Below, in pieces: positions 3,001-6,000 of a stretch of 64,000 bases of DNA (the first letter of the stretch is position 1; each line of letters opens with the position of its first letter). The position numbers are program-made. Where the stretch lies: NCBI RefSeq assembly GCF_058153355.1, contig NZ_CM177019.1, one strand, 5' to 3'.

Positions 3001-6000
3001 TTTATCCCGTAGAACGTCCGGCCTGATGGTCGTGATTTTTTGGTGAAAAAAGAGAGGTGATAAAAATGCCAGCAAGCAAAGAAGATTTGCGATTAAAACT
3101 GACGGAGGTGGTTAACGCTCTGTCAGAGTCGCAGGGCTGCACTCCGCAGGAGATTATCGAAATTCTGAATGCGATCCCCGCGCAGGATTTCACAAAAGCA
3201 GACGAGGATAACGCGAATCAAAACATCGTCGCGTCAGTCGAAGATGAATCCTCACTGGCAGAAGCCCAGGCTAAAGCGGATTCCGCATACAGCAATATGG
3301 CCGTCGCGCTCCTGCCCCGTTTGCTGGTGAAAAGTCGATGGATTACCGCAAGCGCGCATTAATTGGCGCACAGAGGATAGCGAAAAAATTCAGAGATGTG
3401 GATATTCGTTCCGTTTCAGATTCTGCAACGCTGGCGGTGCTGGAAGATCAGATTTACAAGGCTGCTCAGGAAAGTGCTCAGTGGGCCGTGGAAAACACGC
3501 CGGGCCATTTGGGTAAAACCGTAAGAATGGATGAAGCTGGTCGTCGTATTACTGAATATCAGGGCGATCCGAACGTCTGGCTGAACGCCTTCAAAATCCC
3601 TCCCCGTCGCCTGGTCAAAATTAACGTTGCAAGCCTCGCGGGGGCATGAAAAACGTGCTGATTTCAGCCCTGCCGGATTTGGCGGGGCTTATTGCTTATA
3701 ACCGGATAACATTATGCTTTTAACAGAAATTGAGGCGGCGAAGCAGATTCGGGACGGACAGCTACCGTCGCCTTATCAGTTTTCCAACATGTGGCTGGTT
3801 AACCTGCGTATCACAGGAACCGGAATGGCCTACCGCGCCGAAGAAAAAGAATTTGTCTGGCGTTCACCGCAAACTTATCTCAATCCGCAGTTCCTGGAAC
3901 GTTGCGCCGGAGTACCCGTCATTATCGACCATCCCGAAAGCAAAACCCTTGAAGACGTGGGCGAACGGTCGCGCATTATTGGCACCGTCATGTTGCCGTA
4001 TATTCGCGGTGACGAGGTGTGGGGCGTATGCCGGATTTACGGGCAGGAAATCATCGATTACATCCAGAAAGCACGGGGGGAGGTATCCACCAGCCCGTCG
4101 GTTGTGTTTTGTGGTGCGTCCGGTGGGGCTGAAGTTCCTGATGTAATGGGCGAGGACAATTTTTTTATTGAGGGTACGCCATTTCTTATCGATCACGTTG
4201 CACTCGTACCGTTGGGCGTATGGGATAAGGATGGGAAACCATCGGGTGTGGAGGTAACAACGCCGACAGCAGAAGAGCAGCTTGCCGGAATGGTCCGGGA
4301 CGTTATTGATGCGGCCTGCAAGCCAGCCCTGGAAAAACTGGAAGAAATATCCGGGCGGCTGGCTCAACTGGAAAAAGAAGGGTGAGTCATAATGCTGATG
4401 AGTAAGGCAGAATATGCCAGACACAAAGGCGTAAGCCGCCAGACAGTTTACGACTGGATCGAGAAAGGCGAAGTGGTCATGTCCGGTAAAAAAATCGATG
4501 TGGAAGCGACAGAGCAGCGGAACAGCCCACCAGCACAGGGAAAAGACACAGTTTCTGAAATGTGGCCAGAGAGAACGCTGGAAATGACGTGGGGCGAGTT
4601 CTGGAAAGCAGTTAAGGCCAGAGACGGTAAAATTCCTGCGCCAGCAACGGACGAGGGCATACAGCAGCGTGTGCTGGATGCAGCCGGGGAATTAGGCTGG
4701 GAAGTGCACTTTCTTGATGATGGTGCTATCTGCCTTGAGGATTGCGACGGGCAGCATTACTTTGAACAATACAATTTGCGAGGTAATGCCAGGCTGGCAA
4801 TTCATATGCTGCGTTGCGAACTCTGCTATGTTGCAGGTGATTATGCCGATGAACTGGAATCATGGAGTGAGGCCGGACTAAACGCCCTGACTGAGTGGGA
4901 AAAATCAGGCCATCAATGACCTCAAAAAGTGTCAAGTTGAGCAGTTTGCCAGGTTGACACTTTACACTCTGAACGCGAAAAAGTGTCAACCTCGCTGTAA
5001 ACCCCGCCGTTACTAGCCTTGCGCCAGATTTACCACGTCAAAAAGCCGAAAAAAACGCGAAAAGTGTCAAGTTGCCATGCTTAGAAATGCCAGGGGAGGT
5101 TAAGTTTTGTTAAGGTTTTTCGCGAAAAAGTGTCAAGTGTGTCAACCTGCGATGTTAAGATTTGTTAAGGTCTTAAGCCGGAAAGTGTCAACCAGCCCCT
5201 AAGATTTCCTAAGGTGTAAATCATGACCATCACCGAAGCCGATATGCTGGAGATGATCCGCAGCATTGCCGGAATCAGCCAGGCTACAGGCACACAGGAG
5301 GCCACGCAGCCGGATACCGTCACCGCCGAAAATTACGCGCGTGTGGTGGCTGAGGTGATGCGCCGTGATGGTATCCAGCTTAATGACACTGATATGTGCG
5401 ACATACGAATCAGGGTTCTTGAATTGCTGTCATGCCGTCGCCGTTCTCAACAACGGAGGGAGAGCGCGAAAAATACTTACCGGTGGAAGAAGCCGGAACG
5501 GTTACGGCGGTAGATTCCTGATATTCAGGAAAACCACGAATCTGGGGGTTTTACTGGCGCGGTGTACACGGTGGAACGCATAGCGTTACCTGACTTATTG
5601 CATTGCAAAAAGTTAGAAAGGCACGGCCTGTGAGATGGGGTGTTGTGACTGACTTAAAGTCAACCGCAAATTCTTTCGTTGTGCTGGCACAGACGGTTAA
5701 ACTGTTGGTAACAGATTAACCCATCGGGGAAGTAAGGTTTATTTCTGGTCCGATGACGAAATTTTGCGACATTTTGCGACAAGTACGCGCGCGCGACGTT
5801 AACGAAATGAGCGCGATGTATTGCACATCTGGTGCAGTGAGTTTTCGGAGTCCATAAAAACCGGTCAAAACTTGTCATGCAAAACGATGCCACCGCAGCT
5901 ATTGATTTGTTCGGCCCCTTCAACTGGTCCCAGAATGGTGGGGATCTGAGATCTGCCCCTGAAAAAGTGCGCAAAAGTGGTACGCAAAAAGAAAAGTGCG

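Follow-up and report, generated by a model that had tools for sequence, protein, structure and literature searches.

The open reading frame (ORF) at positions 3714-4385 of the 64,000-nucleotide stretch of contig NZ_CM177019.1 (RefSeq assembly GCF_058153355.1) that was analyzed here, referred to below as the window, belongs to a phage satellite and encodes a 223-residue protein of the DUF2213/Pa193_gp24 family. The protein was found to be homologous, over its whole length, to the N-terminal, protease-like part of a head protein of Rac-SA53-type phages, and the gene immediately upstream was found to match the C-terminal end of that same phage protein. The interpretation favored here, held with slightly less than even confidence, is that the ORF is a diverged satellite copy of the helper phage's prohead serine-protease domain, and that the pair of genes takes over helper capsid assembly.

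An earlier note, made from the sequence of this stretch, had called the ORF at this position, and the span proved exact: the reading frame lies on the + strand and comprises 223 codons and a stop codon, beginning with ATG. The N-terminus M-x-LTE(L/I) is common to all homologues, so the start codon was called correctly. The protein matched Pfam family PF09979 (Pfam's DUF2213, since renamed Pa193_gp24) over residues 39-168 with 28.1 bits (E 2.4e-6), against a threshold of 22, and thus belongs to this family. Among the PHROGs, phrog_6216 was matched (E 1e-80) and, less strongly (E 5e-5), phrog_530, "head maturation protease"; the RefSeq label for the E. coli orthologues is "DUF2213 domain-containing protein". 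An AlphaFold2 model computed with 21 homologues (mean predicted local distance difference test score, pLDDT, 86.9) revealed a beta-rich domain (residues 1-185, nt 3714-4268), followed by a single long helix (residues 186-222, nt 4269-4379). The domain is predicted to adopt the prohead-protease/assemblin beta-barrel fold, and its structural matches are enzymes. The earlier note had described the tail as a C-terminal coiled coil; a helix is indeed predicted there with confidence, but the coiled coil is unsupported, since the heptad pattern was non-significant, the observed occupancy of the a and d positions being reached by 886 of 2000 shuffled sequences.

No match to the ORF was found in NCBIfam or PADLOC, so that a defense role is unsupported, and no Pfam match to Nudix or TolA domains was found in either the ORF or its 194-residue neighbor. 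Satellite DUF2213 proteins are nevertheless labeled "cell envelope biogenesis protein TolA" or "Nudix hydrolase" in the source records. These names stem from the longer phage relatives, which contain an N-terminal Nudix domain or a linker rich in Lys, Glu and Ala (K/E/A).

The statement that the protein has no recognizable catalytic motif proved wrong: in addition to the DUF2213 and phrog_530 matches and the assemblin fold, the domain contains near-invariant His73, Ser125/Ser127, and His161. The candidate catalytic histidine, His73 (codon 3930-3932, + strand; motif VIIDHPE), is located just after strand 68-71 of the model, the candidate nucleophile region, Ser125-Thr126-Ser127 (4086-4094, + strand; motif VSTSPSV), opens strand 125-132, and a candidate third catalytic residue is found in Asp160-His161 (4191-4196, + strand; motif LIDHVALVP), within strand 156-165. 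Among 199 homologues, His73, Thr126, Ser127, and Glu153 are each present in 199/199, Pro128 in 198/199, Ser125 and Asp160 in 196/199, and His161 in 195/199; His73, Ser125, Thr126, Ser127, Glu153, Asp160, and His161 are all retained in the satellite copies. The three motifs are reminiscent of the His, Ser-x-Ser, and "HVAL" motifs of the assemblins, and His161 is the likely third catalytic residue, as in those enzymes. The VIIDHPE motif also resembles the NHPP motif of T4 gp21, and in an alignment of the DUF2213 domain with the gp21 family by hhalign (E 0.17, non-significant), His73 pairs with gp21 His85 of that motif. The comparison was non-significant whether the gp21 profile was built from T4 gp21 alone or with 120 relatives, so that the catalytic residues can be equated with those of gp21 only tentatively.

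Sequence-based membership in Peptidase S77 (PF03420) was rejected, since there is no significant sequence similarity to gp21 (no Pfam or PDB match, and hhalign as above); a Pfam scan of the ORF, up to E 10, returned DUF2213 alone. A PDB sequence search with the ORF gave only noise, and a search with the whole alignment (A1) was dominated by its Nudix columns. The function, which had been left as unknown, can be narrowed to that of a prohead-protease homologue.

In phages, the homologous domain forms the N-terminal half of head proteins of 430-680 residues. The homologue in Escherichia phage Rac-SA53 (KU052037), a 430-residue protein annotated "TolA"/"nudix", is encoded in a head gene cluster with the order TerS, TerL, portal, MuF-like head morphogenesis gene, 430-residue protein, phrog_6268, and major capsid protein, and a 553-residue Nudix-DUF2213 protein of Pantoea phage PdC23 occupies the equivalent slot, after the portal and MuF-like genes and before the capsid gene, the classic location of a protease-scaffold gene. 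From the N- to the C-terminus, the Rac-SA53-type protein consists of the DUF2213 protease-like domain, a long, charged, helical K/E/A-rich linker, and a C-terminal domain. When 1.8 billion representative sequences were searched with a profile that includes Nudix columns, 641 proteins were obtained at E <= 1e-30, and most of the best 150 of these 641 are 500-700 residues long. The C-terminal domain, which matched 127 proteins of the pool, is located at or near the C-terminal end in all of the long phage-type proteins among the matches listed (14/14). The phage homologues are encoded beside scaffold and capsid genes, as expected of members of a head cluster, whereas the satellite copy adjoins a scaffold-derived gene and no capsid gene. 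In the related Pa193 gp24, a helix-turn-helix (residues 286-326) was found bound to the capsid interior, and the protein was described as a putative scaffold (PMC11456595). Gene position, fold, and literature therefore point to the Rac-SA53-type DUF2213 protein as a protease-scaffold protein, and from its position, together with the Pa193 gp24 analogy, we infer that the C-terminal domain of the helper protein may bind the capsid protein.

The ORF aligns end to end with residues 1-226 of the Rac-SA53 protein, with 54% identity. The partner gene upstream (3066-3649, + strand; 194 residues when intact), which was located by tblastn in two frames, matches residues 280-422 of the phage protein with 59% identity, as well as positions 450-544 of phrog_6216, and the K/E/A-rich linker is missing from both satellite genes. 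Since the two genes correspond to these two portions, the satellite carries a split copy of the helper protein without the charged linker and in reversed order, the scaffold-end gene coming first and the protease gene second. The partner was predicted by AlphaFold2 to be mostly helical (pLDDT 80.3). RefSeq names the gene "NUDIX hydrolase" in the complete satellite of E. coli PapRG-04-4 (L001, 11167-11751), despite the lack of a Nudix domain. The N-terminal helix of the partner was also considered as a duplicate of phage helix 186-226, and this was rejected, the Smith-Waterman scores being within the range of shuffled sequences (z <= 1.6). The earlier note had guessed at a role in morphogenesis or interference, while denying a catalytic motif. 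That denial did not hold; the guess itself gains partial support from the 54%-identical paralogue in the helper's head protease domain, the scaffold-derived gene upstream, and a TerS-like gene downstream.

In the window, the partner gene carries a 1-nt deletion (GGG to GG at 3299-3300, from a DNA alignment with an intact copy), and the resulting frameshift splits it into ORFs 3057-3362 and 3338-3649. The gene is intact in four E. coli copies (L001 and L009-L011), and the deletion may represent a true pseudogene or a sequencing error. Between the partner and the ORF, a consensus scan detected a terminator-like, GC-rich hairpin with a T-rich tail (3666-3689, + strand), identical in L001. This predicted element could set the ratio of scaffold to protease expression, or could be a target of antitermination. 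A stronger terminator-like site is located at 2691-2721, after the PerC gene.

The placement of the ORF within a satellite, also proposed in the earlier note, was confirmed by the primase C-terminus, SSB, ProQ/FinO, and PerC genes upstream and by the full relative in PapRG-04-4. This relative, L001, is about 12.4 kb long and inserted in yifB. Its first part contains an integrase, a small helix-turn-helix (HTH) regulator (alpA-like), antA, an icd-like gene, primase, ProQ, and PerC, in this order, and its late module consists of a 57-residue ORF, the 194-residue gene, the ORF homologue, a 175-residue gene, and a 59-residue gene. The protein encoded by the ORF is identical to that of L001, the two genes differing by one synonymous substitution. 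Among the E. coli copies, the ratio of nonsynonymous to synonymous substitution rates (dN/dS) is 0.09-0.22, which indicates purifying selection on the ORF. Homologues of the short form (221-226 residues) were found in Citrobacter, Salmonella, Enterobacter, Pantoea, and Klebsiella; their satellite context was checked in E. coli, Pantoea, and Klebsiella. The gene order, consisting of a scaffold-like gene of about 190-199 residues, a DUF2213 gene of about 221-224 residues, and one or more TerS-type genes, is also seen in Pantoea agglomerans and Klebsiella aerogenes satellites, and in E. coli satellites of three kinds that differ in their replication module. In a neighbor-joining tree computed without bootstrap, the satellite proteins form one clade, which is sister to the clade of Rac-SA53-type phages.

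The layout of L001 is that of Gram-negative phage-inducible chromosomal islands (PICIs), which are about 10-15 kb long and contain an integrase, an alpA-type regulator, a primase, and a late module, without a full set of virion genes. Two further loci, L008 and L009, resemble L001 in this respect, whereas the left end of the satellite in the window is cut within the primase gene. Assignment to the capsid-forming PICIs (cf-PICIs) was rejected: L001, L008, and L009-L011 carry no capsid, portal, connector, or TerL genes of their own, and tblastn with the helper TerL, portal, and major capsid proteins found no match in the first 12 kb of the window, in L007, or in L008. Packaging redirection of the Rpp type (RppA/B/C, 144-153 residues) was likewise rejected, the neighboring ORFs being without a PDB sequence match, a negative that presumes an RppC chain in the PDB searched; PMC6739421 includes sections on RppC structure and protein crystallization.

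The association with Rac-SA53-type phages was examined in complete E. coli genomes. The ORF was found in 33 of 5426 genomes, with up to four copies per genome (ETEC1747), and full-length Rac-SA53-type head genes in 81 of 5426. Of the 33 genomes with the satellite, at least 18 also contain a full Rac-SA53-type head module, where 0.49 would be expected (hypergeometric P ~1.6e-25, clonality ignored), and this count is a lower bound, about eight phage-positive records being unlisted. A distance of about 6 kb separates the satellite of ETEC1732 from a Rac-type prophage. In Pantoea agglomerans (L006; JACYNF010000003.1, 1-20666), the related satellite is located inside the terL gene of a Rac-SA53-type prophage, where TerL residues 332-442 resume immediately after the satellite (12114-12446) and are followed by portal, MuF-like, 438-residue DUF2213, and capsid genes. 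The satellite genes of L006 are only 55% and 63% identical to the helper paralogues within this one composite element, so they are of old origin and maintained separately, rather than recently captured. Satellites embedded in their helpers have been described for lambdoid phages (bioRxiv 10.1101/2022.07.18.500453); the configuration in L006 is the same, but the head module is non-lambdoid. From co-occurrence and prophage embedding, Rac-SA53-type temperate phages are likely to be the helpers of this satellite lineage. The laboratory strain E. coli W and its derivatives KO11FL and LY180 also contain a head module of the helper type. Genes for LT-IIa and pertussis-like toxins are found in the reference phage, Rac-SA53.

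If the favored interpretation is correct, the short scaffold-like protein, produced during helper late expression, would compete for the helper major capsid protein via the shared C-terminal domain (the upstream gene is 59-63% identical to that of the helper). The protease, now a separate protein but still with the first scaffold-arm helix, would be built into the resulting procapsids and would mature them, and helper capsid proteins would thereby be diverted into particles that fit the satellite genome of about 12 kb and are probably smaller than those of the helper. The downstream TerS-like gene (4392-4919) would then steer packaging to satellite DNA. Smaller capsids are plausible because the long linker is lost and because the satellite-to-helper ratio is about 12 to 52 kb. 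On the basis of the homology, predicted fold, residue conservation, gene arrangement, purifying selection, and helper association found here, the model predicts that the protease is active and becomes part of procapsids, and that capsid size or helper yield may change. The more general proposal, that the satellite family pirates capsid assembly with an uncoupled protease and a shortened scaffold, and thereby either builds procapsids of its own, probably smaller ones, or destroys helper proheads, is possible but doubtful. If it holds, this module would be the first to hijack capsids by means of a protease in a satellite that forms no capsid of its own.

Several observations weigh against the favored interpretation. 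The catalytic triad is a well-supported inference from conservation and the modeled fold, and in the hhalign alignment cited above (E 0.17), Ser125 is offset from gp21 Ser140; no published activity assay for any DUF2213 protein was found in the searched literature. The genome sizes (about 12.4 kb for L001, 52 kb for the helper) are compatible with small capsids, but prove nothing. In EcCICFT073, the best-studied Gram-negative PICI, capsid size is unchanged and the capsid-related genes are dispensable for transfer. Many of the co-occurrence genomes are enterotoxigenic or Shiga toxin-producing E. coli (ETEC or STEC) from few studies, and the statistic ignores their clonal relatedness. Finally, the protease/scaffold pair is possibly non-working in the window copy, because the partner gene is frameshifted.

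Four alternatives were considered. The satellite might only interfere with its helper, the untethered protease acting on the protease-scaffold or capsid protein of the helper at the wrong time or place, or poisoning the helper's protease oligomer, such that proheads are blocked and no satellite capsids are formed. The retention of all candidate catalytic residues is consistent with this, as is the position of the gene, in a region where other PICIs place interference genes. Mixed oligomers could be mediated by the retained helix 186-222, the counterpart, in the alignment, of the helix that immediately follows the protease domain of the phage protein; T4 gp21 acts as a pentamer (PMC9958956). 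Interference alone, however, leaves unexplained why the scaffold-end gene always adjoins the ORF, and a complete block of the helper would be self-defeating unless finely tuned, because the satellite needs helper capsids; this explanation is considered unlikely. It is also conceivable that the pair consists of spare parts, helper late genes gained by recombination that serve at most as a back-up and have no satellite-specific function. Such satellites are reported to pick up helper late genes from the vicinity of the site of insertion (bioRxiv 10.1101/2022.07.18.500453), that of Pantoea lies within helper terL, the variant E. coli satellites (see below) bear another helper-derived gene, and the dispensable capsid genes of EcCICFT073 offer a parallel. 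Yet the copies are 54-63% identical to the helper genes, even within one composite element, so the capture was not recent; the split, the reversed order, and the loss of the linker are common to several genera; the dN/dS values given above indicate constraint; and the pair is kept in satellites at chromosomal sites far from any prophage. A split protein without the linker, moreover, would be no equivalent substitute for the helper gene, and this origin without function is regarded as quite unlikely.

A protease fold without activity, with a purely structural or assembly role, such as that of a core or vertex-binding component in an alternative scaffold, would agree with the description of Pa193 gp24 solely as a putative scaffold (PMC11456595) and with the weak sequence-level links to known peptidase families. 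The near-absolute conservation of the His, Ser-x-Ser, and Asp-His residues in 199 diverse sequences is, however, hard to ascribe to structure alone, the fold matches enzymes, and the PHROGs database groups the relatives as head maturation protease; an inactive module is therefore thought very unlikely. An equally low probability is assigned to the view that the ORF is a decaying remnant in the window genome, in which the satellite is damaged and the ORF no longer matters. The broken partner gene and an IS66 element at 7714-10077 would fit such decay, and the left part of the satellite lies beyond the edge of the window, but the ORF is intact and its protein identical to that of the apparently complete satellite L001, the indel of one base within a G run could be due to a sequencing error, and the argument concerns this copy rather than the gene family.

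The other backbone and late-module genes of the satellite in the window are all on the + strand. The window starts inside the primase gene, of which the C-terminus is encoded at 87-833 (Pfam/PHROG matches, and a match to L001). It is followed by a phrog_1231 ORF (1121-1378, PHROG match) and by the SSB (1375-1797), ProQ/FinO (1834-2367), and PerC (2328-2651) genes, each identified by Pfam/PHROG matches. The late module opens with a 57-residue ORF (2853-3026) that is 98% identical to WP_001224092 of L001; a gene of this length was called at the equivalent position in L007-L011, so that the ORF is shared by the E. coli and Klebsiella relatives examined and by one of the two Pantoea loci, and none was called there in L006. 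The 175-residue TerS-like protein (4392-4919) has an N-terminal HTH and matches the TerS family phrog_57 (E 1.5e-7 over residues 1-42), its Pfam HTH_17 match being below threshold. This gene is a probable packaging-specificity gene, judging from these matches, and the same slot is occupied by Sf6-type and phrog_370 TerS genes in the Pantoea and Klebsiella satellites. No tblastn match to it was found in 50,697 phage genomes, and a relationship to the TerS of Rac-SA53 was rejected for lack of similarity. A 96-residue ORF (5223-5513; phrog_1561, E 2e-45), with a weak match to the last gene of L001, closes the module. No sigma-70-like promoter was detected on either strand of 2300-7700, shuffled sequences giving 5.8 +/- 2.0; expression of the late module may require read-through, or an activator such as PerC or a late factor of the helper.

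The late module is extended in the variant E. coli satellites (L009, 20680-23425; L010, 6680-9401; L011, 6681-9402), which carry two additional genes after the ORF. One encodes a protein of about 680 residues (679) that is 49% identical to the helper "lytic transglycosylase" virion protein; the other, a 205-residue gene, was compared with the 205-residue gene of the helper and shows no similarity to it.

Beyond the late module in the window, a SocA/Panacea-domain, antitoxin-like gene (6351-6836) overlaps a 147-residue gene (6833-7276) with a weak match to the MAG6450 family. From these matches, the pair is likely to be toxin-antitoxin or defense cargo at the distal end of the satellite; PADLOC gave no match to it. 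The IS66-family element (7714-10077, - strand), which encodes a 523-residue transposase, a TnpB-like Orf2, and an HTH Orf1, lies just beyond this accessory region and possibly marks the satellite's right end or interrupts it. No tRNA gene that could mark an attachment site was found in the window. A prophage beside the satellite was also sought and rejected, the ORFs scanned from 12.4 kb to at least 19.3 kb including type III secretion genes. This cluster (12364-19339) encodes an AraC-type regulator, secretin-like, HrpJ-like, and phrog_12657-like proteins, and an EscN-type ATPase, and presumably resembles the ETT2 island of E. coli; co-oriented ORFs continue beyond it to about 24400.

Satellites are known to steal capsids through external scaffolds (P4 Sid, PLE TcaP), internal scaffold mimics (SaPI1 CpmB), capsid-protein mimics (SaPIbov5 Ccm), or a full capsid set of their own (cf-PICIs). 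If the favored interpretation is true, a split and diverged protease with a scaffold end would add a further route, and whether the protease acts in size control or in interference would become directly testable. The analysis also gives DUF2213, a widespread "unknown" family, a concrete place as the protease-like half of phage protease-scaffold proteins, corrects the misleading database names "TolA" and "NUDIX hydrolase", and names a probable helper for an unstudied PICI lineage. The spread of toxin phages could also be affected, because Rac-SA53 carries enterotoxin genes and the satellite occurs in ETEC and STEC. The DUF2213 family annotation, the fold class, and satellite piracy of capsid assembly in general are already known, and a brief remark in a survey of satellites mentions that a "serine protease" head module, by which hijacked capsids might be modified, occurs in some PICIs (PMC10085698). 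The searched literature contained no account of the split protease/scaffold pair in satellites, of its Rac-SA53-type origin, or of a functional test.

Among known satellites, PICIs of the EcCICFT073 type share the integrase, the alpA-like regulator, the primase, the late module in the same position, and the accessory genes with the satellite described here. They differ in carrying RppA, capsid, and decoration homologues, all of which are absent here, and the late genes of the present satellite come from another helper lineage. A precedent is offered by SaPI1 CpmA/CpmB, which include a satellite-encoded, shortened relative of the helper internal scaffold that keeps the capsid-binding end, in an operon with a terS-type gene; the 194-residue gene would be its counterpart if the shared C-terminal domain binds the capsid protein. 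In a 2017 study in eLife (cited in PMC6092414), CpmB was reportedly found to compete with the scaffold of the helper. SaPI1 lacks a protease copy, its proteins are unrelated to those described here, and small capsids have been demonstrated for it, whereas here they are a prediction.

Compared with known proteases, the ORF shows no significant sequence similarity to T4 gp21 (MEROPS S77) or to the herpesvirus assemblins (S21), and its domain, severed from the scaffold part, belongs to a satellite and not to a virus. In phage P2 (gpO) and phage lambda (C/Nu3), protease and scaffold arise from one gene region, separate products being generated by nested translation or cleavage. As in the Rac-SA53-type helper protein, the two functions are linked in one reading frame, but the protease families differ, and in the satellite they are represented by two diverged genes. 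The closest relatives are the Rac-SA53 protein, 54% identical over the whole ORF, and the wider family of DUF2213 phage proteins, such as Pa193 gp24 and the PdC23 Nudix-DUF2213 protein, which have the invariant residues in common with the ORF; the ORF itself passes the PF09979 threshold. Unlike these longer proteins, in which a charged linker and a C-terminal domain follow and a Nudix domain often precedes, the satellite protein stops behind its first helix, and a separate gene upstream supplies the C-terminal domain.

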